Shown here: positions 1-15,919 of the stretch, in pieces | Layout of the letters: each line of letters starts with the position of its first letter | Numbering within the stretch: position 1 is the stretch's first letter | DNA from: Planctomycetales bacterium | GTDB lineage: Bacteria > 4484-113 > JAFGCY01 | Direction of reading: 5' to 3' | Length of the DNA stretch: 32,000 nt | Assembly: GCA_022646745.1 (NCBI GenBank) | Contig: CP060262.1 | Location: 840,001 to 872,000, forward strand | The notes under the pieces: generated by a model | What the model saw: the letters and a program-made list of their open reading frames with translations, nothing else | What the model was told of the DNA's origin: nothing | Database searches by the model: none | Position numbers and translations under genes: made by a program

Positions 1-1917
1 CGGATCCACTCCATGTTCCAGCAGGATCCGCACCCCGTCCATCCAGCCCAGCTGCACCGCCCGGTTGAGCGGGTCATGCTCCATCGTGCGGCCGTCATAA
101 GGCGCGCTTGCCCTGGCACCATGTCCAAGCAGCAGCTCAAGCTGGCCTGCTCCATAGCTGTTCACCGCGACCAGCACGGCAGCGGCGAGGTCGGCCTCCG
201 TCAGCCAGCGTGAGTACGGCTCAAAGTCCAGGAGCGTTGCCAATATGTCAGCTTCATGCTGGCGCACCGCCAGCTCCAGGCTGTGACCCAGCCCACTGCT
301 TCCCTGCACGACATAATTGCCGGCTTCCAGCTGTCTGGCGAGGTAATCCGGGCTTCCGCAACTGATCAGCGTTTCGAGCGGTATGCCCCAACCCATTGCC
401 GACAGTTCATTCAGCGTCGCCAGCTTGCCGGCCTGGCTCGCCGCCAGCATGCACCTGCGTACCATCGCATCCTGTTCCTGCCCTGACAACACAGACAGTC
501 CGGCGATGCAGTCCTCCGTGTTGCCGAGCATCGCCAGCACAGGCAGGTCAGTAAGCCCTGAATCCCCTAGCAGGAGCGTTGCCAGCTCCCTGCGGCCAGC
601 CTGCAGTGCGAGGCTGACTGCAGTCTGCCCCTCTTCGTCCCGCTGCAGCGGATCTGCTCCGAGTTCAACCAGCGCCAGCAGCGCTGCATCCGGTACCTGA
701 GCACGTGCGCCGAGCATCCGGTGCAGGATGTTGCCACCATTGCGCATCTCGCCGTTTAGCGTCCCGGCCAGCTCCAGGATGTAGCGGTAGAATGCCAGTG
801 TGCCCTGCGGGTCGTTCTCCCAGTCCGCCAGCTTGGGCCCATAGGCGGTCATTGCCCGGTCTGCCGAGCGGTATCCCGGTGCCCGATCCGGCCGTTCCAC
901 GGCCCTTGCCGCCGCGTGCATGTCCAGCCCCTGCTTTTCAAACTGCCTGAACAGCTCCAGCAGTGCTGCCCTGCGCCAGTCACCTTCCACATAGGTCGCC
1001 GCGTGCAAAACCGTATCCGCCAGTGGATCAAAGTCCATCTCACGGCAGTACTGCTGAAGGTCCATTCCGTGTTCCACCAGCAGCTCCAGTTTCGCCGGAT
1101 CGCCGATGCACATCGGGGGCAGGAAGTAATAATTGTCATAATCACCGTCAAGCGCAAATGGCAGGTCCCGCGGGCAGATTTCATCTAGCTCCTCAATGCT
1201 CAGTTCCTGCAGCAGCACACTGAGGCAGTCCATCCATTCGCCACCGTCCTCGCGCAGGCCGCAGCTGCGCAGTGCTGCCATCATGAATCCGTGATCAATC
1301 CTCCCCTCGTGCAGCTCATGCAGCAGGGTCTCGCAGCTGGTCCTGCCGAGCTTTGCACCATGCTCGCCAAACAGCTCAATGATGCCTGCCTGCCCCTCCC
1401 GGATCGCCCGCTGCAGCAGCATGTCCATCACCTGCCTGACTTCCTCGTCGGAAGCACTGCCCTTGCCATCCGGGAACCCTTCCATGGAAATGAACCGGTC
1501 GGCCAGCTCGGGGCAGCCGCAGGGTATCGCATTGAGCAGGACGTCCATTGCCAGCACAGGCAATTCCGCACCTTGCTCAATCTCCGGCATGGCCGCAATT
1601 GCCGCCGCCTCATCCGTCTGCATCAGCCGCAGCACCTCCAGCCAGCCGGCATTCGAAGCGTCCATCTCAAACCCCGCGCTTTCCAGCAGTGCGAGGGTCT
1701 CCAATGCCTGCGGGATCCGGCTGCCCTCTCCGTAGGCATAGCTGTCCAGTGCCATTCCCATCATGAAATCCTGGCTCCATTTCAGAGCGGTTTCATCAGT
1801 CAGATGGGAAACAGCGCCTGAATCCAATTCTTCCCCGGCCTGCGCCAGCACATTGCCGGACTGCAGCAGCAGGCAGCCGGATGCGGCCAGCAGCGCCACG
1901 ATCAGCTTCCAGTTCAT
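1..1917 (-). CDS. Secreted ankyrin-like repeat protein; C-terminal part cut off by the window edge (639 codons open down to nt 1)
   Basis: Hand translation of the minus strand from ATG 1917-1915 gives an uninterrupted frame to nt 1. It is absent from the ORF track because it has no stop in the window. N-terminus MNWKLIVALLAASGCLLLQSGNVLAQA is a signal peptide. Segments GGNILHRMLGA..ALLALVELGADPLQRDEEGQTAVSLALQAGRRELATLLL and PLNRAVQLGWMDGVRILLEHGVDP fit the ankyrin consensus. Third codon positions are GC-rich. Confidence 0.8.
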   Translation of the reverse strand, partial: MNWKLIVALLAASGCLLLQSGNVLAQAGEELDSGAVSHLTDETALKWSQDFMMGMALDSYAYGEGSRIPQALETLALLESAGFEMDASNAGWLEVLRLMQTDEAAAIAAMPEIEQGAELPVLAMDVLLNAIPCGCPELADRFISMEGFPDGKGSASDEEVRQVMDMLLQRAIREGQAGIIELFGEHGAKLGRTSCETLLHELHEGRIDHGFMMAALRSCGLREDGGEWMDCLSVLLQELSIEELDEICPRDLPFALDGDYDNYYFLPPMCIGDPAKLELLVEHGMDLQQYCREMDFDPLADTVLHAATYVEGDWRRAALLELFRQFEKQGLDMHAAARAVERPDRAPGYRSADRAMTAYGPKLADWENDPQGTLAFYRYILELAGTLNGEMRNGGNILHRMLGARAQVPDAALLALVELGADPLQRDEEGQTAVSLALQAGRRELATLLLGDSGLTDLPVLAMLGNTEDCIAGLSVLSGQEQDAMVRRCMLAASQAGKLATLNELSAMGWGIPLETLISCGSPDYLARQLEAGNYVVQGSSGLGHSLELAVRQHEADILATLLDFEPYSRWLTEADLAAAVLVAVNSYGAGQLELLLGHGARASAPYDGRTMEHDPLNRAVQLGWMDGVRILLEHGVDP

Positions 1918-1923
1918 GGACTG

Positions 1924-1932
1924 ATCATAGCA
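1924..1932 (-). promoter_or_regulatory. Extended -10 element TGCTATGAT, 6 nt upstream of the ankyrin-like ATG (possible leaderless mRNA)
   Basis: Reverse complement of 1924-1932 reads TGCTATGAT, followed by CAGTCC and then ATG(1917). There is no Shine-Dalgarno in between. Related TGnTATAAT elements precede three other minus-strand genes in the window. Confidence 0.35.
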
Positions 1933-1954
1933 AGTCGGAATTCAGATCCTGCTG

Positions 1955-2023: not shown

Positions 2024-2491
2024 ATGGCAAAGCGGAAAAACAGAGGAATTGCAGTGCTGACCATGCTGATGCTGGGGCTTAGCATCATCGTGCTGGGCCT
2101 GCTGGCGGACACCCGTCCGGCCAGCGCTTCAGATGAGGACTGCCTGCTGCTCGTGCTCGACAGCGTGGACGGCGTGACGCCGACCGCCGGGATCACGGTC
2201 CAGTTCGTGGACCGCGAGGGAGAGACCCACACTTACGAAACCAATGAGAACGGACTGGTGCTCGTGCCCTGCGGCCTGCTGGGCGACAGCCTGATGTTCG
2301 AGGACACCTGGGGCCATGGCTTCTGCATGGTGCTCAATCCGGAGCGTGCCCATGAGGGTCCGCTCAACAGCCTGCTGATCGACCATCCGGAGCTGGGCAT
2401 CGTCTCCGCACCGGCGGCCAGCAGCACCCCCTACGGCACCGTGCTGCGCCTGGGCATCGGCCCCGGCAGCGAGGAGCCGCTCGAAAACTGA
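2024..2491 (+). CDS. Small membrane-anchored/secreted protein of unknown function (155 aa)
   Basis: ATG preceded by GAGGAAG. Basic N-terminus plus hydrophobic helix (MAKRKNRGIAVLTMLMLGLSIIVLGLL), then a beta-rich region (LLLVLDSVDGVTPTAGITVQFVDREGETHTYETNENGLVLV). GC3-rich codons and a strong terminator downstream. Confidence 0.7.
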   Translation: MAKRKNRGIAVLTMLMLGLSIIVLGLLADTRPASASDEDCLLLVLDSVDGVTPTAGITVQFVDREGETHTYETNENGLVLVPCGLLGDSLMFEDTWGHGFCMVLNPERAHEGPLNSLLIDHPELGIVSAPAASSTPYGTVLRLGIGPGSEEPLEN

Positions 2492-2761: not shown

Positions 2762-5323
2762 TCAGAATATCGAGAACGACGTGTAGGCCCAGTCCGTCAG
2801 GCCGCTGTCATCCACCACCGTTACCGTCACCAGCTTCGATCCCGAGCTCATGAACACATGCGTGGTCAGCGGTTCCGTGGTCGTCTCATCGGGGACCCCG
2901 TCTTCGTCGAAGTCCCAGCGGTACTCGACGATGCTGCCATCCAGGTCAAAGCTGGCGCTGGCATCGAACTCCACTGGTGCAGGCAGCGCGATGAACGGCC
3001 CGCCCGGATACTCGATTGCCGCAGTCGGTGCGCCATCCGTGCGGATGATGAACTGCTTGAAGCTTGTTTCATCGTCATCATCCCAGGCATACACGTACCC
3101 ATGGAAGGACCCAGATGTCGCGTAGCTGAAGCTGGCCATCGGCCCGGCCGGCGGGTCTGAGGTGTCAAACAGTTCGAGGCTGCCGTCACCGTCAAAGTCC
3201 CAGCCCCACTTCACGATCGTGCCGTTGTCAGTTGAACCGCTGGCGTCGAAGTTCACCGTCAGCGGGGAACTGCCCTGTGTCACATCGATCTGCAGGTCGA
3301 TCTTGGGCGGGTCACTTAGCGGGGCGAACAGGGTCAGCTTGGTGGAACCTGTGGCATTGTCACCCTGGTCATCGGTCACCCGCACACTCGGGCTGAAGCC
3401 GAACACCGCCTCCTCGTACGTGAACTGCGCAAAGGGCACGTCGCCCGTGTCCAGCTCAAAGCCGTTGCCGGCATCACCGTCAATGTCCCATTCGTACTTC
3501 ACGATGCTGCGGCCCTCGGAAGCGCTGCTGTTCTCCGCGGTGTAGCTCACGGTCAGCGGCGCGTTGCCAAAGGTCTCATCCCCGAGGATGCTGGCAACCG
3601 GCGGGCCGCCGGGCGCCTCCAGCGCGGTGATGATCACCTGTGTGGATGCGCGCTGGAACCAGGAATCCGTCACCGTCAACTCGACGACGTACACTCCGGG
3701 ATCCGTGAATGTGTACTGGCCGCTCGGCTCGCTGCTGCCGTCAGTCAGGGTGCCGAACTTGTCAAACTTCCATGCGTAGTCCGTCAGTGTGCCATTCGGG
3801 GATGAGCTGGCTGCGGCATCGAAGCTGACAGTCAGCGGCGCGATTCCCGCTTCCGGACTGATCGTTGCCACCGGCAGCGGTTCTGCCAGCGGATCACCGA
3901 CCTTGAAGTACTGCCCCCAGGGACCACCCTGTCCACGCAAGCCACCATGGATTCCCTGGCTGAAGTTCAGCACCCCGAAGAAGAACTGCAGGTGCAGGAT
4001 TCCGTCGCCGGTCGGTGCAGCGGGATCTATCCGCAGGATGGCGTCGGAATTGCTGAGGCTGGCATACGGCCAGGGCGTCCCATCTTCGGTCACGAAGCGG
4101 TAGCGCATGTCCGGATGCGTTGATATGTCCCCGAGCAGCGGGTCAGTCACCGTCACCTTGGTTTCCGACCCCGCTGAGGCGACAAAGGGATCCACGAAAT
4201 TGCCTGCTCCATCCAGCCCCTCAAAGCTGATGGATGGGGGCTGCAACTTTCCCGGGTTGCTGGACCAGCGTGGAGACGCAAGCACGTAGCTAGGCATCCC
4301 TTCAGTGACGCCATCCGAGGACCTGACCCAGTAGTAGTTGTAATCCTGCTGGCCCTGGGGCTGCGAGAGGATGTCGCCCTTGTAGAACAGCCGGCCCTCC
4401 TTGGGCAGCGGGCCAGGGTGGATCGCAGCATCCGGCAGCTGGTAGTCCATGAAGTCCTTGGTCGCATAGGGTTCGATCGTCGACGGCCCGTTGTCCGCGG
4501 GGAAGTCATCAAAGTCGTCTGAGGCGTATAGGTTGTAGGAGCTGACGCGCGCCCCGAAGTTGGCACCGATCGGCGTGATGTCCGCCAGGTTGATCTCCCC
4601 GTTGGCATCGCCGTCGATCATTCCGGGAATGGTGGCCGGCCCGAATGGCCCGACTTCCTTCAGGTGGATCCCGAGTGGAGTCAGGTCGGAGATGTTCACC
4701 TCACCGTTCTGGTCGTAGTCACCCTGGTTGTAGTAATGCCAGAAAAGTCCGTATGTCGTGTTCAGCTCATAGCTGATGTCGCTGCGGGAGCCCGGCCCGG
4801 TCGGTGCCTTGGAAGCAGCACGCACTGATCCCAGCGCTCCCCGCTCGAAGTGCACCGTTGCCAGCTTGCCGCTGCCGCTGAACCCTTCCGCATTCTGCGG
4901 ATGGATGTACAGCTGGCCATGATGCATCGCCTCCCTCGTGTCCAGCACTCCGAGGCTCAGCAGTTCAGACGGCCTGCCAAACTGCCTGGCCGCGCTGCTG
5001 GCAACCGCATGCCAGTGCCCCGTGTCGTAGCTGATGGAGAAGTACAGTGCACGCAGGTCCTTTGCATCCTCAACGCTGACTTCCGCCAGCAGGCTGCCAT
5101 CCTCCTGTTCGCTGACCGACAGGTTCACGGACGCAAGCCGGGCTCCGTAGACCAGGCTGTCCGGGCTGACTTCCAGCCGCATTCCATCACTCTCGGAAAC
5201 CAGCGCCGTCTTTGGCAGCTCAGCAATGTCGAGATCCCTGTTGCCAGCCGACCCACAGGCTGACAGCAAGGTCGCCAGTATGGCGGCGATCAGTGGATTT
5301 AATGGCAATTTAACATTCCGCAT
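2762..5323 (-). CDS. Surface lipoprotein with cohesin-like module + dockerin + unassigned middle region + 4 PKD domains (paralogue A)
   Basis: Preferred start is ATG 5323 with GGAGAG 5 nt upstream (the track start 5341 lies only 11 nt from the -10 element). Lipobox LLSAC. Cohesin-like segment ..DLRALYFSISYDTGHWHAV..GSGKLATVHFERG (about 4832-5182). Dockerin duplicated Ca loops DYDQNGEVNISDLTPLG / DGDANGEINLADITPIG (about 4550-4726). Four PKD repeats with WDFDGDG / YRWDFDEDG / YEWDIDGD motifs (2765-3871). Confidence 0.9.
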   Translation of the reverse strand: MRNVKLPLNPLIAAILATLLSACGSAGNRDLDIAELPKTALVSESDGMRLEVSPDSLVYGARLASVNLSVSEQEDGSLLAEVSVEDAKDLRALYFSISYDTGHWHAVASSAARQFGRPSELLSLGVLDTREAMHHGQLYIHPQNAEGFSGSGKLATVHFERGALGSVRAASKAPTGPGSRSDISYELNTTYGLFWHYYNQGDYDQNGEVNISDLTPLGIHLKEVGPFGPATIPGMIDGDANGEINLADITPIGANFGARVSSYNLYASDDFDDFPADNGPSTIEPYATKDFMDYQLPDAAIHPGPLPKEGRLFYKGDILSQPQGQQDYNYYWVRSSDGVTEGMPSYVLASPRWSSNPGKLQPPSISFEGLDGAGNFVDPFVASAGSETKVTVTDPLLGDISTHPDMRYRFVTEDGTPWPYASLSNSDAILRIDPAAPTGDGILHLQFFFGVLNFSQGIHGGLRGQGGPWGQYFKVGDPLAEPLPVATISPEAGIAPLTVSFDAAASSSPNGTLTDYAWKFDKFGTLTDGSSEPSGQYTFTDPGVYVVELTVTDSWFQRASTQVIITALEAPGGPPVASILGDETFGNAPLTVSYTAENSSASEGRSIVKYEWDIDGDAGNGFELDTGDVPFAQFTYEEAVFGFSPSVRVTDDQGDNATGSTKLTLFAPLSDPPKIDLQIDVTQGSSPLTVNFDASGSTDNGTIVKWGWDFDGDGSLELFDTSDPPAGPMASFSYATSGSFHGYVYAWDDDDETSFKQFIIRTDGAPTAAIEYPGGPFIALPAPVEFDASASFDLDGSIVEYRWDFDEDGVPDETTTEPLTTHVFMSSGSKLVTVTVVDDSGLTDWAYTSFSIF

Positions 5324-5352
5324 AAACACTCTCCGATCCATCTGTCGGCTGC

Positions 5353-5361
5353 ATTATATCA
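5353..5361 (-). promoter_or_regulatory. Extended -10 promoter element TGATATAAT for paralogue A
   Basis: Reverse complement of 5353-5361 is TGATATAAT, in the context GCTTGATATAATGC. This is nearly identical to the element upstream of paralogue B. Confidence 0.5.
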
Positions 5362-5457
5362 AGCAGAATGCTGGCCACACAGGCAGCATGCCTCCCTCGC
5401 ACGGATGCACTATTGCGCTGACCAAATCCGCTGGCCCCAAATGGCCGGTCCCCTGAC

Positions 5458-8025
5458 TCAGAAGATGGTGAAGGTCTGCCTGTCCCAGTCAGTCAGGCCG
5501 TTGTCATCCACCACCGTCACCCGCACGATCGGATAGCCTGCCTGCGTGAACAGATGGGTGACGGTCGGTTCAGTCGTAGTCATGTCCACCGTGCCGTCGT
5601 CATTGAAGTCCCAGCGGTACTCCACGATGCTGCCATCCATGTCACTGCTGCCGCTGGCATCGAATTCAATTTCCTGCGGCGCGCCGAAGTAAGGTCCGCC
5701 CGGGTATTCAAGCACCGCAGTCGGCGCTCCGTCCACCCGGATCACGAAGGACTTCGAGTTGAGCTGGTCCGTATCATCCCAGGCATAGAAGTAGCCATGG
5801 AAGGCCCCGCTGGTTTCGTAGGTGAAGCTCTCCATCGAAGTGGCAACCGGGTCGGACAGGTCGAACAGCTCGAGCTTCCCGTCGCCGTCGAAGTCCCAGC
5901 CCCACTTGCTGATCGAACCTTCCGCATCCGTCGTGCCACTGCCGTCAAAGTGCACTGTCAACGGACTGCTGCCAACGCTTACGTCAATCACGAGGTCCAT
6001 TTCCGGCGGGAAGTTCAGTGGCGCAAGCGGTACCACTGCCAGTCCGGCTTCCGCCGTTGCACCGATGTCATCCGTCACCCGCACACGTGCCGTCAGCAGC
6101 CCGGCTTCGGTATATGTCATCTGTGCATTCGGCTCTGAACCGGTATCCAGCTCAAAGCCATTGCCGTCATCGCCATCGAGGTCCCATTCATACTTGACGA
6201 TGCTGCGGCCGGCGGCCGCCTGGCTGTAATCAGCGCTGAAGTTGATCGTCAGCGGAATGTTGCCATCACGCACGTCCGCGAGGATGCTGGCCACCGGGTC
6301 CGTCCCGCCGGCCGGCAGTACCTTGACAACCTGCTGCGTGCTGGCCTGCTGCACCCAGTCGTCATTCACGCGCAGCTCGACCACGTAGACGCCCGGCTGA
6401 TCATATGTGTATTGCGGTTGGGCTTCATTGCTGAAGCCGAAGCTGCTGCCATAGAGGTCGAACTCCCAGCTGTAGAAGCGGATGCTGCCGTTCGGCGTAC
6501 TGCTGCCCGTGCCGTCGAACTGCACAGTCAACGGGGCCTCGCCCTCCAGCACATCCGCCGCCAGCACGGCACTCGGTGGCAGCAGGGCCGGACCGCTGCG
6601 CAGCGTCAGGCCGCGCGGGCCATCCTCGCCGGGCAAGCCGCCGAGCATGCCCTGGTCGTAGCTGAGTAAACCGAAGTAGTACTGCAGGCGCAGTTCGTCA
6701 TTTCCCTGCGGAGCCTCAGCGCTGACCCTCAGCACCGCATCGCTGTTTGACAATGTGGCGTATGGCCAGGGGGCACCGTCCTCCTGCACCACCCGGTAGC
6801 GCATCTGCGGATCCGTCGAGATGTCGCCCAGCAGCGGGTCAATCACGTTCACCTTGTATTCCCCTCCCGGCTGCAGCAGCAGCGGGTCTTCCAGCCGCCC
6901 GATGCCGCTGATGTCGTCAACGCTGATTGCCGGAGGTTCGAGGCTGTCACCGAAGAACTCGCTGTAGAAGGGTGAGGCCAGGATGTAGCTGGCCGTTCCT
7001 TCAGTCTCACCGTCCGTCGGACGCACCCAGTAGAAGTTGTAGTCCTCTCCACCGCCGCCGATGCCGGCCGAGATGATCTGCCCCCAGTAGAACAGCCGGC
7101 CGTCCTTGGGCAGCGGGCCGGGGTGGTCCTTGTCCTCCAGCTGGTAGTCGCTTGATTCCTTTGTGGAGTATGGCTCGATGCTGGACGGTCCGCCATCCGC
7201 CGGATAGTCCGCGATGTCATCCGAGGCATACAGGTTGTATGCACTGATACGCGCGCCGAAGTTGGACCCGATCGGCGTGATGTCCGCCAGGTTGATCTCG
7301 CCGTTGCCATCACCGTCAATCACGCCCTGGATCGAGGCCGGGGACCATGGCCCGGCCTCCCTCAGGTGGATGCCCAGCGGTGTCAGGTCGGAGATGTTCA
7401 CTTCGCCGTTCTGGTCGTAGTCACCCTGGTTGTAGTAATGCCAGAACAGGCCGAAGGTCGAGCCGAACACGAAGGAGATATCACTGCGTGAACCGGGGCC
7501 AGTCGGCGCTTTGGCAACACTGCGCACTGATTCAAGCGCTCCCTTCTCGAAGCGGACACTAGCCAGTGTGCCACTGCCGCTGAAGCCTTCACTGCTCTGC
7601 GGATGGATGTACAGCTGCCCGTGGTGCATCGCCTCCACTGTGTCCAGCACTCCGAGGCTCAGCAGTTCCGACTGCTTGCCAAAGCGGCTGTCAGCGCTGC
7701 TTTCGACAGCATGCCACTCGCTCGTGTCGTAGCTCAGCGTGAAGTACAGCGCGCGGAGGTCCTTTGCATCATTGGCGCGGATCTCCGCCAGCAGGCTGCC
7801 GTCCTCCTGCTCATCGACCAGCAATTCCACACTGTCCATCCTGCCACCATAAATGAAACTGTCAGCGCTCAGCTCCAGTTCCATCCCTGCGGCTGATGCA
7901 TGCAGGGCAGGCCTGTCACCAGTCGGATCAGTATCCGTCAGGCTGCTGCGGCTCCCGCAGGATGCTGCAAGACCGAGTATCGAACTGGCAATGAGTAGCT
8001 TTGTTGCAGTGCTGGCTGCTTGCAT
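5458..8025 (-). CDS. Surface lipoprotein with cohesin-like module + dockerin + unassigned middle region + 4 PKD domains (paralogue B)
   Basis: Preferred start is ATG 8025 (MQAASTATKLLIASSILGLAASCGS, lipobox LAASC) with GGAGTG upstream; the track start 8148 adds 41 non-signal residues. The architecture is collinear with paralogue A, with the same dockerin loops DYDQNGEVNISDLTPLG / DGDGNGEINLADITPIG and PKD motifs WDFDGDG / YRWDFNDDG. Confidence 0.9.
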   Translation of the reverse strand: MQAASTATKLLIASSILGLAASCGSRSSLTDTDPTGDRPALHASAAGMELELSADSFIYGGRMDSVELLVDEQEDGSLLAEIRANDAKDLRALYFTLSYDTSEWHAVESSADSRFGKQSELLSLGVLDTVEAMHHGQLYIHPQSSEGFSGSGTLASVRFEKGALESVRSVAKAPTGPGSRSDISFVFGSTFGLFWHYYNQGDYDQNGEVNISDLTPLGIHLREAGPWSPASIQGVIDGDGNGEINLADITPIGSNFGARISAYNLYASDDIADYPADGGPSSIEPYSTKESSDYQLEDKDHPGPLPKDGRLFYWGQIISAGIGGGGEDYNFYWVRPTDGETEGTASYILASPFYSEFFGDSLEPPAISVDDISGIGRLEDPLLLQPGGEYKVNVIDPLLGDISTDPQMRYRVVQEDGAPWPYATLSNSDAVLRVSAEAPQGNDELRLQYYFGLLSYDQGMLGGLPGEDGPRGLTLRSGPALLPPSAVLAADVLEGEAPLTVQFDGTGSSTPNGSIRFYSWEFDLYGSSFGFSNEAQPQYTYDQPGVYVVELRVNDDWVQQASTQQVVKVLPAGGTDPVASILADVRDGNIPLTINFSADYSQAAAGRSIVKYEWDLDGDDGNGFELDTGSEPNAQMTYTEAGLLTARVRVTDDIGATAEAGLAVVPLAPLNFPPEMDLVIDVSVGSSPLTVHFDGSGTTDAEGSISKWGWDFDGDGKLELFDLSDPVATSMESFTYETSGAFHGYFYAWDDTDQLNSKSFVIRVDGAPTAVLEYPGGPYFGAPQEIEFDASGSSDMDGSIVEYRWDFNDDGTVDMTTTEPTVTHLFTQAGYPIVRVTVVDDNGLTDWDRQTFTIF

Positions 8026-8055
8026 GTGGTCACTCCAATCAGATTGCTGCGGAGC

Positions 8056-8064
8056 ATTATAGCA
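8056..8064 (-). promoter_or_regulatory. Extended -10 promoter element TGCTATAAT for paralogue B
   Basis: Reverse complement of 8056-8064 is TGCTATAAT (context GCTTGCTATAATGC), about 30 nt upstream of ATG 8025. Confidence 0.5.
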
Positions 8065-8187
8065 AGCAAGATAATATTGTTTGAATGTTCCAATTGAGAC
8101 AATCCGATGAACGTATCGACGGGTTGCCAAGGAAGCCTGGACATTCAATCTTCACATGATTCCATTGGGATCGCCTGGTTCATCTTG

Positions 8188-10311
8188 CTACTCGATACCG
8201 GCCCTGGCCGCGTCGAATTCCGCAATTGCCCGCTGCAGGCCCTCGTCATCGGGGAACAGGGAAATCCCGTCCCGTAGCACCCTGTCAGCGCCATCGTTGT
8301 CACCGAGCCGCCGCAGGGCCGCGGATTCCAGCAGGCAGCACCGCGCATCCACATCCTCGCATGCGTGCATCTCAGTCAGCGCAGCCTTGGCCTGCTCCTC
8401 CATCCCGAGCTTGCTGTACAGCTCCGCCAGCCGCGCATGCCCGAGTGCCAGCCAGGGCCGGCTCTGCAGGGAGACGACATACTTGTCAACGCAGCCGTTG
8501 TACTTGCGCAGCTGCTCAGAATCAAGCGACTGCATGTCAACGCCGGCCAGCAGCCGGCCGATCTCCATCTGCACCGTCTGCAGCTCATCCTCCATGTGCG
8601 GCAGCAGCAGCTCGCTGCGCTTCTCCAGCGGGTAGTGCTCCAACGCTCGCACAGCTGCAAGGCGGATGATCGACTCATCGGACACCAGCCCGCCGCGGAT
8701 CGCATCCAGCCCGCCCTCGTCAGCGAAGCTGCCGAGCTCCTCCAGCGCAGTGGCCCGCACGATCGGCGCCTGGTCATGGTCCGTTGCCAGTTCACTGAGC
8801 CCCGCGATGCTGGCACGGTCGCCACTGCGCGCGGCCGCGAATACCGTGCCGAAGTGCGGTGCATGCTCAGTGCCGTACCAGCCCTGCCATGCACTGACGA
8901 TCTCGTCCAGCCCCATGTCGTCGTGGCACTGGCTGCAGGCGTTCGGCGTACCGATCTGCTGCGTCAGGTCCGGCCGCGGGATGCGGATGCTGTGGTCATG
9001 GCGCAGGTCCGCCCCGAGGTATTCGCGCACCGGCATGTGGCAGGCCACGCAGCTGGACCCCTCGCTGCCAGCGGGATGGAAGCTGTGCTTCTCGTTGTCA
9101 AACTTCTCCGCCGAGTGGCAGCGCAGGCACAGATCGTTGCCAGTTTCCCAGGTGCGGCCGGTATGCGGGTCGTGGCAGTCGGAGCAGCTCACGCCGTACA
9201 TGTACTCCCGGCTCTGCAGGAAGGAACCCGCCTCATAGACCTGCACATCGCCCGGCTGCCCGTCAGCCTCATACAGCCCCTCGCGCAGCAGCGCCAGGTC
9301 AACATAGTTCAGCGGGTCGCGGTCATAGCCGAATTCATCTACCAGTGGCTGCTGCAGCGCATGGCACTGCATGCAGGTCTCGACCTCCCGGCGTTCCGTG
9401 CGCCGCGGCTCACGGTAGGCCGTGCCGCTGGCTTCGTCCATCTTCCACTGATGTTCCTTGCCGGTCAGGAAGAAGATCAGGCCCTTGCGCGCCACCTTGT
9501 TCTCCAGGCCCTGGCGCTGGCCCTCAGCCCAGCCGATGTGGAACTTGGCACCGCCATGGCAGGACTCGCAGCCGACGTCATCCTCCGGCAGGTAGGTCTC
9601 GAAACCGCGGCTCTCCGCCTGGAAGCCAACCTTGGTTCCGCCGGCATGGCAACGGATGCAGTTCGTGTTCCAGTTGGCATTCCAGCCCAGCCAGTTGTGG
9701 CCACCGCTCATTTCATGCGGGCTGCTGGCCGGCAGGCGGAACCAGCGCTGGCCACCGTCCGCAGCTTCGCGCATATCCCAGCCGATGTCCAGCACCTGCA
9801 GGCGGCCATTGCCAATGTCCAGCGCGTATTGCTGGATGCTCTGCCCGCCGATCGCCCACTTCACTTCATAGTCCCGCGCTTCCTGTTCCGGGGCTGCGGT
9901 ATGCACTATGTACTTCTCGCCATCCCGGAAGAAGCGTGCACTGCCAAGTTCATCCGTAAACTCGACATCATTGAAATCGCCGTGCACGAACATCGGTTCC
10001 ATCACATTGTTGGCAAGGTCATGCGCGGTCTGGCGGTAGCCCACCACCAGTTCCTTGTGGCAGCTGAAGCAGTCCCCGCGACCCTTGAAACCGGCGCTGG
10101 CCAGCCGCGGAAGGTTGCCATCCGATGGGTCCTGCATGTCCTTGACCCGTTCCTCAAGTGTCATGCTGCTGGCATAGGCCGGCTTGTTATGGGACTTGCC
10201 CTGGCCAGTGGCCAGCTGTCCGCCGGTGTTGGCATCCTGATCGCGGCATCCGGTAGCTACCGCAAGCAGCAGCAATGCTATCAGGCCTGTGGACAGTTTC
10301 CCCGGGTTCAT
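8188..10311 (-). CDS. Octahaem c-type cytochrome lipoprotein with C-terminal HEAT/TPR-like helical repeats
   Basis: Lipobox signal MNPGKLSTGLIALLLLAVATGC. Eight CxxCH motifs (CFSCH, CIRCH, CESCH, CMQCH, CSDCH, CLRCH, CVACH, CSQCH). Motif RHDHSIRIPRPDL..PNACSQCH. C-terminal third has HEAT-like repeats (IVRATALEELG, IIRLAAVRALEH) and TPR-like helices. Confidence 0.9.
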   Translation of the reverse strand: MNPGKLSTGLIALLLLAVATGCRDQDANTGGQLATGQGKSHNKPAYASSMTLEERVKDMQDPSDGNLPRLASAGFKGRGDCFSCHKELVVGYRQTAHDLANNVMEPMFVHGDFNDVEFTDELGSARFFRDGEKYIVHTAAPEQEARDYEVKWAIGGQSIQQYALDIGNGRLQVLDIGWDMREAADGGQRWFRLPASSPHEMSGGHNWLGWNANWNTNCIRCHAGGTKVGFQAESRGFETYLPEDDVGCESCHGGAKFHIGWAEGQRQGLENKVARKGLIFFLTGKEHQWKMDEASGTAYREPRRTERREVETCMQCHALQQPLVDEFGYDRDPLNYVDLALLREGLYEADGQPGDVQVYEAGSFLQSREYMYGVSCSDCHDPHTGRTWETGNDLCLRCHSAEKFDNEKHSFHPAGSEGSSCVACHMPVREYLGADLRHDHSIRIPRPDLTQQIGTPNACSQCHDDMGLDEIVSAWQGWYGTEHAPHFGTVFAAARSGDRASIAGLSELATDHDQAPIVRATALEELGSFADEGGLDAIRGGLVSDESIIRLAAVRALEHYPLEKRSELLLPHMEDELQTVQMEIGRLLAGVDMQSLDSEQLRKYNGCVDKYVVSLQSRPWLALGHARLAELYSKLGMEEQAKAALTEMHACEDVDARCCLLESAALRRLGDNDGADRVLRDGISLFPDDEGLQRAIAEFDAARAGIE

Positions 10312-10480
10312 GTCTCGCTTAGTTTATCCCCTGTTGATCTGCCGTCCCATCTTTGACGGCGCTTGGGCCGGATCAGTTCGCGGAGAACTCGGATACTAAA
10401 TAAAACAATTCCGCAGCTTTGCCGGTCAGAACAACTGGCCCGGGTGGGGGGCCTGGATGTAGATTGTGCGGAGGATTGAG

Positions 10481-11026
10481 ATGATGAAGACAATATTGCT
10501 GGCCGGCGTGGCCAGCCTGCTGGTAAGCGGCATCGCCGCCGCCCAGGATCCTGCTGTTCCTGCGGGGACCACAGTTGTTGCTGCCAGCGAGCGCTGGGGC
10601 AACGCCCCGGATTTCAGCCTGACCACCTTCGAGGGTGATGAAGTGGTCATTTCCGAGCTGGGCGGCCGGCCGCTGCTGCTCAACTTCTGGGCTGAGTGGT
10701 GCCCGCCCTGTGTGGCGGAGCTGCCTATGCTGCAGGAAGCCTACGAGCAGTACGGCGAGGATGTGCAGTTCCTGACGGTCAACCTCGAGAAGGGCCGGAT
10801 GGACCCGGGAGCGTTCCTGGAGCAGCGCGGGATCAGCATCCCGGGCGGCCTGGCGGATAACGAGGTCGGACTGCGCTACGGCATCAGCGGCATCCCTGCG
10901 ACCTTCTTCATTTCCAGCGAGGGCAATGTGCTCGGCATGAAGACCGGCGCCTTCGTGGAGGGTGAGCTGCCCTATGTACTTGATGCGATGCTGGCATATG
11001 AGGACAGCCTGCTGGTCACCGAATAG
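10481..11026 (+). CDS. TlpA/ResA-like periplasmic thiol:disulfide oxidoreductase (thioredoxin fold)
   Basis: ATG 10481 lies 5 nt after GGAGGA. Signal peptide MMKTILLAGVASLLVSGIAAAQD. Motif NFWAEWCPPCVAELP (WCxxC) and GIPATFFISSEG (cis-Pro loop). Confidence 0.9.
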   Translation: MMKTILLAGVASLLVSGIAAAQDPAVPAGTTVVAASERWGNAPDFSLTTFEGDEVVISELGGRPLLLNFWAEWCPPCVAELPMLQEAYEQYGEDVQFLTVNLEKGRMDPGAFLEQRGISIPGGLADNEVGLRYGISGIPATFFISSEGNVLGMKTGAFVEGELPYVLDAMLAYEDSLLVTE

Positions 11027-11123
11027 GCGGCAGGACCCCGCTCCAGGCAGGCCATACACTTTATGGCGCTGCAAGTGAACACGGGATAGAATGTGGATAG
11101 CACGCAAACCTAAAGGCACTACG

Positions 11124-11522
11124 ATGGCTGCAGGACGACGCAATACACAACAGCGCAAGAAGATCCGTGAGGTCTTCGAGAAGGCGGGCCGGCCTCTCAA
11201 TGTTGAGGAAGTCCACTCGCTCGTGCGTGAAATCATCCCCGGTCTGGGCATCGCCACGGTCTACCGCGCGATCAACGACCTGGTGGAGGAGGAATGGCTC
11301 AAGCCGGTTGAGTTGCCTGGCCGCAACAACAGCTATGAGCTCAGCCACCTCGGCCACCACCACCACTTCATCTGCAATGAGTGTGACAAGGTGTTCGACC
11401 TCGAAGGCTGCCCCGGTTCCATGAAGGACCTGATCCCGGAAGGCTTCAAGGCCAAGGCCCATGACATCACGATCTGGGGCCTTTGCTCTCACTGCAACGA
11501 AGAGGAAGTGCCGAGCGCATAG
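11124..11522 (+). CDS. Fur-family metalloregulator (Fur/Zur/PerR subtype not resolvable)
   Basis: RRNTQQRKKIREVF..GIATVYRAINDLVEEEW (winged helix), HHHHFICNECDKVFDL and CSHCN (two CxxC pairs). Start at M12 of the track ORF is preferred (AAAGG upstream); ATG 11091 is possible. Confidence 0.9.
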   Translation: MAAGRRNTQQRKKIREVFEKAGRPLNVEEVHSLVREIIPGLGIATVYRAINDLVEEEWLKPVELPGRNNSYELSHLGHHHHFICNECDKVFDLEGCPGSMKDLIPEGFKAKAHDITIWGLCSHCNEEEVPSA

Positions 11523-12591: not shown

Positions 12592-13806
12592 GTGGCAGCT
12601 TACGACCTGCCGCATTCGCAAAGGGGGACAGAATTGGCAATACCGCTCCGTGACAACGCACCGAAGGGTGCGGAACCCGTCGTCACTCCCGCCATCATCG
12701 GCGTCTGCGTGCTGGTGTTCGGCCTGCAGTGCCTGCACCCCGGCGGGATTGAGGGTTCCTGCATGCAGTGGGGTGAGATCCCGGCACGCATCTTCGCCGG
12801 TGAGCTGGTGCCTGGCACCGGCCTGAGCGCCTGGTGGACCGTGCTGACCAGCATGTTCATGCACGGCGGGCTGGCGCACATCATCGGCAACATGGTGGTG
12901 CTCTGGCTGTTCGGTGACAACGTGGAATGGCTGATGGGCCGCGCGCGCTTCCTGCTGTTCTACATCCTCAGCGGCATCGGGGCCAGTTTGGTCACGATCT
13001 GGCTCGGCAGCGAAAGCAGCTTGCCCGGCGTAGGTGCCAGTGGGGCGATCGCCGGCGTGATGGCGGCCTACCTGATCTTCTATCCGCGAGCCCGCATCAC
13101 CTCCCTGATGTGGATCGACCCCTTCAGCCTCGGGCATGCCTGGACCGGCAGCTGGGGCTTCGTGACCCGCAACATCTCGGCACTGTGGTTCATCGGCAGC
13201 TGGATCGTGTTCCAGCTGCTGCTGGCAACGCTGTTCATCGGCAGCGAAACCTGGCTGAACCTCGGCATCTATGCCCATGCCGCCGGGGCGATCACCGGAG
13301 CATTGATCTGCTGGCCGCTGGTGATTGAGAAGCGCCGGCCGGCGGCTGACCATCCCGTGTACACCGACTCAATCAGTGCCGCAGTGTTCGGCGACGAGGG
13401 CGATGCCGGCGGCAGCAGTGTGCCGGTCCAGCGGCTCGGGGCCCTGGTGCAGGAACTGCGTGAGGAACAGCGCATGCCGGAACCGGAGACCTTCTCCGAT
13501 CCGGTGGCCCTCGACATGGTGCAGGCCGGCAAGCTGGAGCAGGCCCTGCGCCACTGCCGGGACATGCTCGAGATCAACATGCAGCAGGGCAACCGTGGCC
13601 GCGCGCGCGGCTATGAACGCCTGATTGACGAACTGCAGGACACCCTCGCCCTCAGGGACCGCCGCCAGCAGGAACGCAGCCAGCGCACTGAAGCTGCGCC
13701 TGTGCCAGCCTGGCAGTCCGGCAATGCGGGGCTCGAGCGGCGGATTGCCAGCCGCCGCAGGGAACTGCTGTCCCGCTCCCGTGCGCAGGACCCCTGGCCT
13801 GACTGA
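12592..13806 (+). CDS. Rhomboid-family intramembrane serine protease with a cytoplasmic helical C-terminal extension of about 150 aa
   Basis: Motifs FMHGGLAHIIGNMVVLWLFG (TM2 H..N), GASGAIAGVMAAY (catalytic Ser) and YAHAAGAITGAL (catalytic His helix). The start is ambiguous: GTG 12592, or TTG 12634 which lies 5 nt after AGGGGGA. Confidence 0.9.
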   Translation: MAAYDLPHSQRGTELAIPLRDNAPKGAEPVVTPAIIGVCVLVFGLQCLHPGGIEGSCMQWGEIPARIFAGELVPGTGLSAWWTVLTSMFMHGGLAHIIGNMVVLWLFGDNVEWLMGRARFLLFYILSGIGASLVTIWLGSESSLPGVGASGAIAGVMAAYLIFYPRARITSLMWIDPFSLGHAWTGSWGFVTRNISALWFIGSWIVFQLLLATLFIGSETWLNLGIYAHAAGAITGALICWPLVIEKRRPAADHPVYTDSISAAVFGDEGDAGGSSVPVQRLGALVQELREEQRMPEPETFSDPVALDMVQAGKLEQALRHCRDMLEINMQQGNRGRARGYERLIDELQDTLALRDRRQQERSQRTEAAPVPAWQSGNAGLERRIASRRRELLSRSRAQDPWPD

Positions 13807-13849
13807 AGCCCGCCCGGACACATGGTGGACAATATGTGTCATCAGAGGC

Positions 13850-14875
13850 ATGCGACAACATAAGCGATATGCGAGGACCCTGGCAGTGGTCCTGCTGCTG
13901 GCAGGGCTGCTGCTGGCTGCCGCTTCCTGCCGCAAGGCCCAGGATGGCACTGCCCAGGGTGAAGCCCGCAGCGGCCAGCCGGCCCGTCCGGCTGAGGATG
14001 GCAACGGCGAAAGCGCGCGCGGACCGGAGACGGACCCGGAAGGCAATGCCCTGCTGCGCCAGTCAGCGCTGGCAGCGCAATATGGCATCTTGCGACCGGA
14101 GGACCATAGCGCCGCCCAGGCGGATTTCCGCAAGGCCTACGAAAATGGCGACAACCTGGCCGGGATCTACCTCTATTACCTGCTGGGGATCGAACCCGGC
14201 TTCGAGGACCGGCTGGCGGAGCGCACGCAGATCGCGAAGGACTGCCTGATCGATGTCAACCGCCGGGCCAAGGCGGAAGAGCCTGAGGCGCAGTACCTGA
14301 TGAGCCTGATGCGCCTGCAGTACATCGACGAGGAGGACAGCCGCGCCTTCATTGACGAACAGCTGCAGGCGGCCTGCGCGGATGGCAACGCGGCAGCCTG
14401 CTACCTGCATGGGGAACTGCTGGCCGCCGGTGACCTCGGCGAGGCGGACCACAGCGCCGCCGAGCAGCAGTTCGAACACTGCGTCGGGCTGGGCTGCAAC
14501 TACGGCCACTACGGGCTGTCGCGCCTGTATGGCAACCCGGACAGCCCGCTGTACGACCTGCCGCAGTCCATCGAACAGGCCCGCATCGCCGCCGCGGCCG
14601 GCAACCACCACTGCATGGAATACCTCGCCTTCTGTTACTACATGGGCGAAGGGGTCGAGCAGGACCTGGCAATGACGCGTGACTACTACCGCCAGGCCGC
14701 CGAACTTGGCAACGCTGAATGTGCCGGCAAGCTGGCTGCGATGATGATTGACGGCGAGGGCGGTGATGTCGACCTGGCGGGAGCGCGCCAGTGGCTGGAG
14801 AGGATCCACATCGCTGACTACCAGCCCTTCGTTGACGAGATGCTTGCGGAAATTGACGAAAAGCAGGGATCCTGA
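13850..14875 (+). CDS. Sel1-like repeat (SLR) lipoprotein
   Basis: The true start is probably ATG 13850 (MRQHKRYARTLAVVLLLAGLLLAAASC, lipobox); the track ORF 13625 overlaps the rhomboid gene. SLR motifs include CMEYLAFCYYMGEGVEQDLAMTRDYYRQAAELGNAECAGKLAAMM. Confidence 0.85.
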   Translation: MRQHKRYARTLAVVLLLAGLLLAAASCRKAQDGTAQGEARSGQPARPAEDGNGESARGPETDPEGNALLRQSALAAQYGILRPEDHSAAQADFRKAYENGDNLAGIYLYYLLGIEPGFEDRLAERTQIAKDCLIDVNRRAKAEEPEAQYLMSLMRLQYIDEEDSRAFIDEQLQAACADGNAAACYLHGELLAAGDLGEADHSAAEQQFEHCVGLGCNYGHYGLSRLYGNPDSPLYDLPQSIEQARIAAAAGNHHCMEYLAFCYYMGEGVEQDLAMTRDYYRQAAELGNAECAGKLAAMMIDGEGGDVDLAGARQWLERIHIADYQPFVDEMLAEIDEKQGS

Positions 14876-15900
14876 TGCAAGCGGAGCAGCGCAATCCCGG
14901 ACCAAGTACCGAGCAGAAGTTCAGGATCCGCCTGCTGGTTTTCATTGCCCTGCTCTGCCTGCTGGCCTTGTCAATCCTCGTGCTGGCTGGCCGCTCAGCG
15001 CTGCTGCTGTACGGATCACACAGGATGATTGGTGACAGCACGCATCAGGAGGAAGGGAATGCCGCTCTGCGGGAGCAGGGACGCAACCTGCTTTATGGCA
15101 TTGGTTGCCCGATCGACCAGCAGCGTGCTGAGCAGCTGTTCAGGGAAGCCTATCAGGCCGGGGACAAGCTCAGTGGAGGCTACCTTTACATGGTCATCAG
15201 GCACAAAGTACTCAGCGAGGATGAGCAAAATGAGCAGGGCCGGCTCTGGCGGGACTGCAAGCCGGCAATCTATGGGGCGGCCTACCAGGGTGACATGGAT
15301 GGCAAGTTCCTTGCAGCGATGAGGCAGAAGTACGTTTTGGATGACAACACGGAAGCGGTCAGGCTCTGGCGCAAGGAGATAGGCGAGGCAAGCGATGCCG
15401 GTTTCCCGCCGGCGATGGTGGAACGGGGTTACAGGATCCTAGATGGCGATGTCTGGGATTACGATGTCAATGAGGCGATGGACTGGTTCCGGAAGGCCCA
15501 TGAGGCCGGCTGCCTTGCAGGCACGGGCGGAATGGGTGCTACTGCGGCGTTGAATGATTACAGCGGCAGGGAAAAACCACTCATGATTGAATACCTCCGG
15601 CAGGCTGCCGACGGTGGAGACCCGATGGGGAACCTGACACTTGGCAACATGTATTACTACGGCGATGGCCTGCCTCTGGACTATGGTCAGGCGCTTGAGT
15701 ACTACCGCAGGACTGCTGAAGCCGGTGGTTCAAATGGATACCGGTATGTCGCACGCATCCTGATCCGCGGACTGGCTGGCCCGGCAGATCTTGCGGGAGG
15801 ACGAGCAGCGCTGGAAACATCGCTAGGATATGGCGAGGACGAGGAGAAGCTGGCGCTGCTGGCGGAACTGGAGGAGCTGGAAGCCGCTGCCGGCAGGTAA
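14875..15900 (+). CDS. Single-pass membrane-anchored Sel1-like repeat protein
   Basis: The ATG overlaps the upstream TGA by 1 nt (TGATG). KFRIR plus TM helix LLVFIALLCLLALSILVLAG. SLR motif GNLTLGNMYYYGDGLPLDYGQALEYYRRTAEAGG. Confidence 0.85.
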   Translation: MQAEQRNPGPSTEQKFRIRLLVFIALLCLLALSILVLAGRSALLLYGSHRMIGDSTHQEEGNAALREQGRNLLYGIGCPIDQQRAEQLFREAYQAGDKLSGGYLYMVIRHKVLSEDEQNEQGRLWRDCKPAIYGAAYQGDMDGKFLAAMRQKYVLDDNTEAVRLWRKEIGEASDAGFPPAMVERGYRILDGDVWDYDVNEAMDWFRKAHEAGCLAGTGGMGATAALNDYSGREKPLMIEYLRQAADGGDPMGNLTLGNMYYYGDGLPLDYGQALEYYRRTAEAGGSNGYRYVARILIRGLAGPADLAGGRAALETSLGYGEDEEKLALLAELEELEAAAGR

Positions 15901-15919
15901 TGTGAGTCCCCTCGCTTGA

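Follow-up and report, generated by a model that had tools for sequence, protein, structure and literature searches.

Two adjacent genes, here named A and B, lie on contig CP060262.1 of a Planctomycetales bacterium (GenBank assembly GCA_022646745.1) in a 32,000-nucleotide stretch (positions 840,001 to 872,000 of the forward strand), which was analysed as a whole and is referred to below as the window. Both genes encode predicted lipoproteins that begin with a divergent cohesin, a dockerin-like module and a further conserved module, X. Judged by comparison of sequences across related genomes, the functional unit is this N-terminal cohesin-dockerin-X cassette, which belongs to a large lineage-specific lipoprotein family, and not the A/B pair. 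We regard A and B as paralogous, non-catalytic, lipid-anchored envelope proteins and tentatively prefer the reading that members of the family dock to one another in trans in a Ca-dependent manner. An earlier description of this DNA, made from its letters alone (the original prediction), had presented A and B as a tandem pair that might assemble into a surface scaffold. The module order is the same in the two proteins, namely lipobox, N-terminal module (N-module), dockerin-like module, X, a second middle module (mid2) and four PKD domains. The genes and the parts of their cassettes, with E-values from hidden Markov models (HMMs) of the family, are the following.

2762..5341, minus strand: gene A, lipoprotein of 859 amino acids (aa) from ATG 5341; the probable true start is ATG 5323 (853 aa).
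4820..5194, minus strand: cohesin-like N-module of A (residues ~50-174), family HMM 2e-40.
4550..4747, minus strand: dockerin-like module of A (residues ~199-264) with two Ca-loop-plus-helix segments, DYDQNGEVNISDLTPLG and DGDANGEINLADITPIG, located by motif scan and family HMM.
4274..4546, minus strand: X-module of A (residues ~266-356), family HMM 3e-19; mostly beta-strands in the AlphaFold2 (AF2) model, with a predicted local distance difference test score (pLDDT) of 52-94 for the block.
5458..8025, minus strand: gene B, paralogous lipoprotein of 855 aa from ATG 8025, the most plausible start.
7522..7899, minus strand: cohesin-like N-module of B, family HMM 3e-39.
7252..7449, minus strand: dockerin-like module of B, family HMM 4e-36, Pfam Dockerin_1 19.6 bits.
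6973..7248, minus strand: X-module of B, family HMM 3e-18.

The N-module is treated here as a divergent member of the cohesin superfamily because three independent lines of evidence, from its modelled fold, from the recurrence of one Pfam family and from transitive homology, agree. An AF2 model of residues 47-180 of A, built with a 29-sequence alignment, is all-beta with eight main strands (pLDDT 91.9, predicted template modelling score (pTM) 0.84); the ninth strand of the cohesin jelly-roll may be supplied by the connector that follows. When the PDB was searched with this model using Foldseek, the best 37 matches were all cohesins, including type I, type II and non-cellulosomal Clostridium perfringens representatives (probability 1.00, TM 0.50-0.58, root-mean-square deviation (rmsd) about 3-5 Å over 102-126 columns), and other folds such as CBM3 and the pilins ranked below all 37 at much lower probability. 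A longer, 451-aa model of A likewise returns cohesins. The Pfam Cohesin profile (PF00963) gives 12.8 bits (E 0.14) on the N-module of A, under its gathering score of 24.1, and no match on full-length A or B. Across 42 non-redundant N-modules of the family it matches 14 (best 7.1e-5) and is the sole Pfam family that recurs. Searches against PDB sequences with the single protein and with family profiles returned nothing significant for the N-module; their marginal matches are type II cohesins, in register at beta3 '…F.(L/I).YD…' and beta8 'G.LA…F'. The identity of the module became clear only from the fold comparison and from a profile search of a much larger protein library.

The link to established cohesins comes from a profile of the N-module only (alignment A5), which was searched against 1.84 billion representative proteins and matched 1,145 of them at E<=1e-3 and 375 at E<=1e-10. 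About 15 of the best 150 matches contain 3-11 tandem repeats of the module without a dockerin (E 1e-24 to 1e-41); the nine of these that were scanned match Pfam Cohesin at 1e-24 to 1e-55 over 3-6 repeats, and one of the multi-repeat proteins is annotated 'cohesin domain-containing protein'. The idea that these poly-cohesin proteins are scaffoldins of the present lineage was rejected, as those that are named belong to Clostridia, Dehalococcoidia and a 'gliding motility-associated' set, and they therefore document homology and not a local scaffoldin. The module thus models as a cohesin jelly-roll, so that the failure to do so which the original prediction had named beforehand as grounds for abandoning it did not occur; it is also linked by profile to bona fide Pfam cohesins, and the sequence motifs then quoted are present in both A and B.

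The second module has the architecture of a dockerin, with two tandem 12-residue EF-hand-like Ca loops, each followed by a helix and lying about 35 residues apart. A scan of all six frames of the window for the Ca-loop motif D-x-D-x-N-G-x-[VI]-x-x-x-D located two true sites per gene, at 4682-4720 and 4577-4615 in A and at 7384-7422 and 7279-7317 in B, besides which only one PKD look-alike matches. The AF2 model of the A module reads loop-helix, short helix, loop-helix, with helices at model residues 178-187, 199-203 and 213-221. A family profile of 46 non-redundant segments matches dockerins of known structure (4fl4_A 1.2e-8, 2y3n_B 1.9e-8, 4wi0_B, 2ccl_B 1.9e-7 and CelD 2e-7) in a single continuous stretch that covers both Ca loops at dockerin spacing. 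Pfam Dockerin_1 (PF00404) matches 35 of the 46 family members (best 6.1e-7) and is the commonest Pfam family among them, ahead of the EF-hand families. In A it scores 13.0 bits (17.9 for the isolated segment) and in B 19.6, both under the gathering score of 22.9. Throughout the family, both helices bear an unusual (L/I)TP(L/I)G motif, with NFG at the end of the second one. The assignment as a dockerin is supported at the level of the family profile, although the earlier label of a 'canonical' duplicated dockerin does not, given these scores and helices. Conservation across 330 unique family sequences is 70-98% for the Ca ligands and 60-80% for the helix motif; mean column identity is 46% for the dockerin vs 34% for the N-module.

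The distribution of the three modules indicates what is inherited as a unit. A scan of one genome per GTDB species recovered 67 loci, all in about 13 metagenome-assembled genomes (MAGs), which are labelled 'bacterium UBP7 HKST-UBA01/03', 'bacterium AC1.30', 'Planctomycetales bacterium Ww346', SJ870, Zod_Metabat.1143 and a few others, with 10-15 loci in individual MAGs. HMMs for the N-module, dockerin (Doc) and X, run over all open reading frames (ORFs) of the fetched loci, identified 122 ORFs, the main classes being 60 N-Doc-X, 39 Doc-only, 13 Doc-X and 3 N-only, and each well-sampled MAG holds at least 19-29 distinct dockerin-family ORFs in its fetched loci. The genes often stand in tandem arrays of two to four N-Doc-X genes followed by Doc-only genes (e.g., L025, L033, L014 and L015). 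Among the best 150 matches to the N-module profile, all single-cohesin proteins of sufficient length for the order to be read have N-D-X or repeats of it, and on this ground we consider cohesin, dockerin and X to be a fixed evolutionary cassette. In the same set of 150, the order N-D-X-D-X occurs in 15 proteins and N-D-X-N-D-X in 9; the proteins in which the whole cassette is duplicated are P0063, P0064, P0074, P0077, P0079, P0080, P0095, P0099 and P0105.

Nearly all family members begin with a lipoprotein signal. The Cys that follows the hydrophobic region is kept throughout the family alignment, and of 138 further representatives, many of them fragments, 101 have a lipobox-like motif. What follows the cassette is varied, and the C-terminal cargo includes PKD arrays of up to 10 domains, PQQ/BamB-like and BNR/sialidase-like propellers, multihaem cytochrome domains and SdrD/CarboxypepD-like sandwiches. 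A distant member, P0059, combines a dockerin with cytochrome domains. Small (~264 aa) lipoproteins with a cohesin only are encoded directly upstream of N-D-X genes in three genomes (L019 7872-8663, L021 7836-8627 and L022 4291-5211). Their cohesin-like module is C-terminal, lacks a dockerin and matches the family HMM at 1e-8 to 2e-10 with no match in Pfam; these proteins are candidate receptor-only anchors. No glycoside hydrolase or other carbohydrate-active enzyme (CAZyme) domain was found in A, in B, among the scanned ORFs of the window or in the sampled family members, which bears out the earlier statement that this is not a cellulosome. Homologues with a source name are annotated 'hypothetical protein', 'PKD domain-containing protein' or 'PKD repeat protein', and literature searches found no description of this lipoprotein family. 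The closest MAGs were labelled UBP7 by their depositors (PMC8495973); the HKST MAGs were obtained from saline activated sludge, and AC1.30 (JAWLAZ01) is near-complete. The phylum UBP7 as now described comprises genomes of 0.83-1.39 Mb with 36-53% GC (PMC11382960), a description that does not fit these MAGs, as the contigs of AC1.30 total more than 3 Mb and the G+C content of the window is about 62%.

The original prediction had given weight to A and B as a pair, and a dedicated A/B heteropolymer, that is a two-component scaffold made from the products of the tandem genes, has some features in its favour. The two genes are neighbours on one strand with the same architecture, their promoter-like and Shine-Dalgarno (SD) sequences are similar, and the cohesin-dockerin part is the most conserved. 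A and B share 60% identity over 857 aa (BLASTP), with amino-acid identities of 72% in the N-module, 85% in the dockerin, 67% in X, 52% in mid2 and 47/56/68/64% in PKD1-4. The earlier observation that the cohesin and dockerin are better conserved between the copies than the PKD part is thus upheld, with PKD3 nearly equalling the N-module. A near-identical run of about 60 nucleotides (nt), also reported earlier, is real (4682-4741 vs 7384-7443, 97% identical), but it carries no sign of a constraint specific to A and B, since the same 60 nt are 90-97% identical in 10/10 pairwise comparisons of A, B and three orthologues from other genomes. On the same ground, gene conversion between the two genes was rejected as its origin; it is not needed, because invariant residues and codon bias account for the run.

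Conservation of the pair was assessed at the syntenic locus of three relatives (L001, L002 and L003). This locus holds the Sel1 genes, Fur, the redoxin, a multihaem cytochrome lipoprotein, a PKD lipoprotein and a homologue of orf2024, with one PKD lipoprotein gene in each of the three. B is orthologous to the single gene of L003 (83%) and of L002 (76%), and the single gene of L001 is nearest to A (67% to A vs 60% to B), a pattern that reflects either an old duplication with differential loss or an acquisition of A. A metagenome scan for closer relatives of A gave PKD-level matches only, and hence none with the pair, and an exact look-up of protein A in an assembly index gave none. The claim of a conserved A/B system is therefore not sustained, and a dedicated heteropolymer seems very improbable to us. 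As part of the explanation that we hold to be best, though with less than even confidence, the tandem arrangement would be a by-product of family expansion and not an obligate heteropair.

The mechanism that we put forward, at the same tentative level, is that the cassette acts as a Ca-dependent docking device in which the dockerin of one member would bind, in trans, the cohesin of another copy or paralogue. Cassette proteins could thereby form chains or networks at the membrane, the many dockerin-only lipoproteins encoded in the same genomes would occupy free cohesins, and PKD arrays, beta-propellers and cytochromes would be brought together on the envelope in a lipid-anchored assembly resembling a cellulosome. 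A dockerin is present without a cohesin in roughly half of the family, and some members have two dockerins for one cohesin, which argues that the dockerin has a partner outside its own chain. From the strict fusion of a known receptor-ligand pair we infer that cohesin and dockerin interact. Trans docking is also favoured because the cohesin-only lipoproteins upstream of cassette genes resemble receptor-only anchors, because the dockerin is the best-conserved module, as is the case where many dockerins share one cohesin specificity, and because Amy4 of Ruminococcus bromii provides an experimental precedent (PMC4611034). A far-reaching version, in which the fused cassette would link dozens of lipoproteins per genome head-to-tail and Ca-dependently as an envelope-wide lipid-anchored lattice, with cohesin-only proteins as chain starters and dockerin-only proteins as caps or cargo, we consider unlikely.

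Several observations weigh against trans docking, and some of them favour an intramolecular pedestal, in which cohesin, dockerin and X of one chain pack together, the dockerin being cis-bound or a Ca-stabilised hinge, with no exchange of partners; the rigid stalk so formed would keep the variable C-terminal domains off the membrane. The 451-aa AF2 model of A places four modules with a pTM of 0.75, and connector residues 167-180, which have a pLDDT of 44-67 in the N-module-only model, rise to 80-96 in the long model, so that the connector is ordered only when the downstream modules are present. This ordering indicates a compact, rigid N-D-X unit in the model and could mean a cis-packed dockerin. 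The connector is short (about 25 residues), conserved, structured and partly beta-stranded, whereas cellulosomal linkers are long and flexible, and N, D and X are inherited as one invariant block, which in some proteins occurs twice (N-D-X-N-D-X). Among the remaining difficulties for trans docking, no multi-cohesin scaffoldin was found in the fetched loci of this lineage, which span 10 kb on either side of dockerin genes. A and B fall under the Pfam thresholds for both Cohesin and Dockerin, calmodulin EF-hands match the dockerin profile as well as dockerins do (5e-9), and sequence by itself places the dockerin-like module in an EF-hand/dockerin continuum. A 'cell surface' location of A and B is, moreover, something that we infer, and lipoproteins of diderm bacteria often face the periplasm. 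We nevertheless consider the pedestal, with its stalk function, somewhat unlikely, although it is the main competitor of trans docking. Many members have a dockerin, with or without X, but no cohesin, and in these the dockerin must work without a cis cohesin; the two-dockerin and cohesin-only proteins likewise fit it poorly, and conservation of the dockerin helices as high as this across paralogues points more to an external partner in common than to a private interface.

In a further reading, the dockerin might recognise a target other than the family's own cohesin, such as a dedicated anchoring protein encoded elsewhere, an envelope glycan or a peptidoglycan component, and the cohesin-like module would be a structural or ligand-binding beta-sandwich that plays no part in dockerin binding. 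Dockerin-only genes exceed cassette genes in HKST-UBA01 (15 vs 5) and Zod_Metabat.1143 (7 vs 2), and in more distant MAGs only dockerin-only genes were found; dockerins far outnumber cohesins in many non-cellulosomal genomes, and in the present family the dockerin is better conserved than the N-module. Yet the cohesin never occurs alone in long single-cohesin family proteins, a strict fusion that is hard to explain without an interaction, and no other candidate receptor was found within the fetched loci. This reading is in our view decidedly unlikely, and trans docking between family members remains the one that we carry forward.

Comparison with known systems places the cassette among non-cellulosomal assemblies. 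In the amylosome of R. bromii, the cohesin of Amy4 recognises the dockerin of Amy4 itself as well as dockerins of other proteins (PMC4611034). The original prediction had stated that cohesin and dockerin normally reside on separate polypeptides, and this overlooks the self-recognition on one chain already documented for Amy4. It had further called non-cellulosomal occurrences functionally unexplained, whereas the amylosome has an assigned function and the 'planctosome' a published model (PMC6461901). Amy4 resembles A and B in that cohesin and dockerin share one polypeptide outside a cellulosome and dockerin-only proteins are present in the same genome, and multimers of Amy4 have been predicted from its self- and cross-recognition. 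It differs in being a single secreted GH13 enzyme of a Gram-positive bacterium, not a family, with its modules C-terminal and well separated. Here, in contrast, the modules are adjacent at the N-terminus of lipoproteins without a catalytic domain, there are dozens of paralogues per genome and docking is a prediction. The planctosome of freshwater Planctomycetes (Nemodlikiaceae), a bioinformatic model only, includes an adaptor with a dockerin, an HYR domain and a cohesin (PMC6461901). It shares with the present family a non-cellulosomal setting in an uncultured Gram-negative lineage, the presence of both modules on one protein and a proposed role in envelope tethering. The planctosome model has one anchor, one adaptor and dockerin-bearing peptidases, and lacks a lipobox, a fixed Coh-Doc-X cassette and a large paralogous expansion.

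Likeness to the classical systems is greatest at the level of the modules. As in cellulosomal types I and II (CipA and SdbA of Clostridium thermocellum; PDB 1ohz, 2b59 and 2ccl), the N-module is modelled as a cohesin jelly-roll (TM 0.50-0.58) with the beta3 '…F.L.YD…' and beta8 'G.LA.(V/I).F' motifs in register, and the dockerin consists of two loop-helix segments with 12-residue Ca loops. The X-module beside the dockerin loosely recalls the X-Doc dyad of type II systems, with the difference that X follows the dockerin here and precedes it there. Unlike in cellulosomes, no CAZymes and no multi-cohesin scaffoldin were seen in this lineage, the anchor is a lipid and not an SLH domain or sortase, one cohesin is fused to one dockerin through a connector that is short and structured, the dockerin has (L/I)TP(L/I)G in its helices, and A and B score under the Pfam thresholds. 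The cohesins of the C. perfringens GH84C and GH33 toxins (PDB 2jh2, 2w1n and 2vo8) rank with the best matches by structure (TMq 0.54-0.56, rmsd 2.8-3.2 Å) and show that non-cellulolytic proteins are assembled by cohesins. They differ from the present case in belonging to secreted glycoside hydrolases of a Gram-positive pathogen, with cohesin and dockerin on different enzymes. Set against all four systems, the family stands out by its lipid anchor, by the N-terminal position of one cohesin joined to one dockerin and a subsequent X-module, by its dozens of paralogues per genome, by cargo without enzymes and by the (L/I)TP(L/I)G motif. What is new here is the fixed cohesin-dockerin fusion on a lipoprotein family of an uncultured candidate phylum; the interaction modules themselves are known.

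The remaining parts of A and B, together with the control elements read from the sequence, are listed below.

5255..5341, minus strand: signal peptide and lipobox of A (…AILATLLSAC followed by GS, Cys29), read from the translation.
3878..4273, minus strand: mid2 of A (residues ~357-488), strands in the AF2 model with block pLDDT 73-89 and a disordered loop at model residues 418-436.
2765..3877, minus strand: four PKD domains of A (residues ~489-859, individual boundaries approximate), Pfam PKD_4 2.5e-31 in 4 stretches and PKD 4.1e-25.
6574..6972, minus strand: mid2 of B, by alignment to A.
5461..6573, minus strand: four PKD domains of B, Pfam PKD_4 1.8e-40 in 4 stretches.
8056..8085, minus strand: promoter-like element upstream of B, TTCAAA, an 18-nt spacer and a TG-extended TATAAT (TTCAAA-18-TGCTATAAT), consensus scan 10/12.

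The signal peptide of each protein ends at a lipobox Cys (LLSAC then GS in A, LAASC then GS in B), in agreement with the lipobox that had been reported for each paralogue; lipidation itself is a prediction. The X-module is a family-conserved, beta-rich block of ~90 residues directly C-terminal of the dockerin with the motif R..F…YWVRP.DG..EG.PS, and mid2 is a beta-rich block of ~130 residues that, in the alignment, is common to only part of the family. Both are predicted from the models to be beta-sandwich modules, and neither has a Pfam match or a significant sequence match in the PDB. Among PDB sequences, the X profile gave only laccase matches at the level of chance. The four PKD repeats per paralogue, as described earlier, are confirmed by Pfam PKD (PF18911/PF00801) scores of 108 and 137 bits in 4 stretches per protein, far above the gathering cut-off of 27. 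A Pfam scan found no catalytic domain in A or B.

The span of 2762-8064 first given for the pair contains two collinear minus-strand ORFs in the ORF list, as stated, while its end at 8064 lies 13 codons upstream of the ATG of B and inside the promoter-like element. Gene A probably starts at ATG 5323 and not at 5341, because an SD-like GGAG stands 8 nt upstream of ATG 5323 and a TG-extended -10 box (TGnTATAAT), TGATATAAT, lies at 5360-5353. From this start the N-terminus of A reads MRNVKLPLNPLIAAILATLLSAC followed by GS; that of B, from ATG 8025 with GGAG 8 nt before it, reads MQAASTATKLLIASSILGLAASC followed by GS. A box resembling that of B, …TGCTTGaTATAATGC, is located upstream of A at about 5353-5366. 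The two upstream regions (5353-5366 and 8056-8085, minus strand) are alike, reading …TGCTTG(a/c)TATAATGC… and then GGAG 8 nt before the ATG, which suggests that the duplication took in the promoter and ribosome-binding-site region and, for A, speaks for ATG 5323 as the start; the promoter-like elements of both genes are consensus matches only.

Directly upstream of B lies a gene that accompanies the PKD lipoprotein gene in all four genomes.

8188..10311, minus strand: multihaem cytochrome c lipoprotein with a HEAT/TPR C-terminal region (Pfam Paired_CXXCH_1, Cytochrome_C7, Cytochrom_c3_2, Cytochrome_C554 and HEAT_2).

This protein has no match to the dockerin HMM. It gives a weak MtrC/MtrF-like match, which by analogy is only a hint of an outward-facing location. 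Divergent from the cytochrome and PKD lipoprotein genes, on the plus strand at 10466-11522, are a secreted AhpC/TSA-redoxin-like gene and a Fur-family regulator, whose synteny is kept in L001-L003. Three consecutive Sel1-repeat genes follow at 13625-17680 (plus strand), with a rhomboid protease gene before them at 12592-13806. On the other side of the pair, orf2024 (2024-2491, plus strand) is 86% conserved in L002 and L003, and between it and the end of gene A a GC-rich hairpin at 2548-2575 (10 bp, 9 GC pairs) is followed by a T-run on the plus strand and may be a shared terminator of these convergent genes. An ORF running off the start of the window (1-1941, minus strand) encodes ankyrin repeats (Ank_2 2.3e-8). 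Many long ORFs overlap the real genes in other frames or antisense to them, as does one of 663 aa at 8365-10356 (plus strand) inside the cytochrome gene; none has Pfam support, and they are the usual artefact of about 62% G+C. Neither tRNA genes nor Rfam matches occur in the window.

Of the high-affinity protein connectors of bacteria, cohesin-dockerin pairs have been studied best, and nearly all that is known of them comes from polysaccharide-degrading complexes of Gram-positive bacteria. The family described here comprises hundreds of database clusters annotated as hypothetical or PKD proteins, in which cohesin and dockerin are permanently fused beside a lipid anchor. In a candidate phylum without a cultured member, about 20-30 non-enzymatic envelope proteins per genome begin with the cassette, which suggests that a cellulosome-style docking system has been reused for the organisation of the cell envelope. 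If the cohesin and dockerin pack in cis, a receptor-ligand pair would have been turned into a structural stalk. If instead they dock in trans, as we tentatively prefer, the family would offer a simple, testable system in which to study the building of a surface or periplasmic protein network by such bacteria, as well as a new source of orthogonal cohesin-dockerin pairs for protein engineering. Should the envelope-wide lattice prove true, cohesin-dockerin docking would be a general envelope-organising principle in a Gram-negative-type bacterium, unrelated to polysaccharide degradation.

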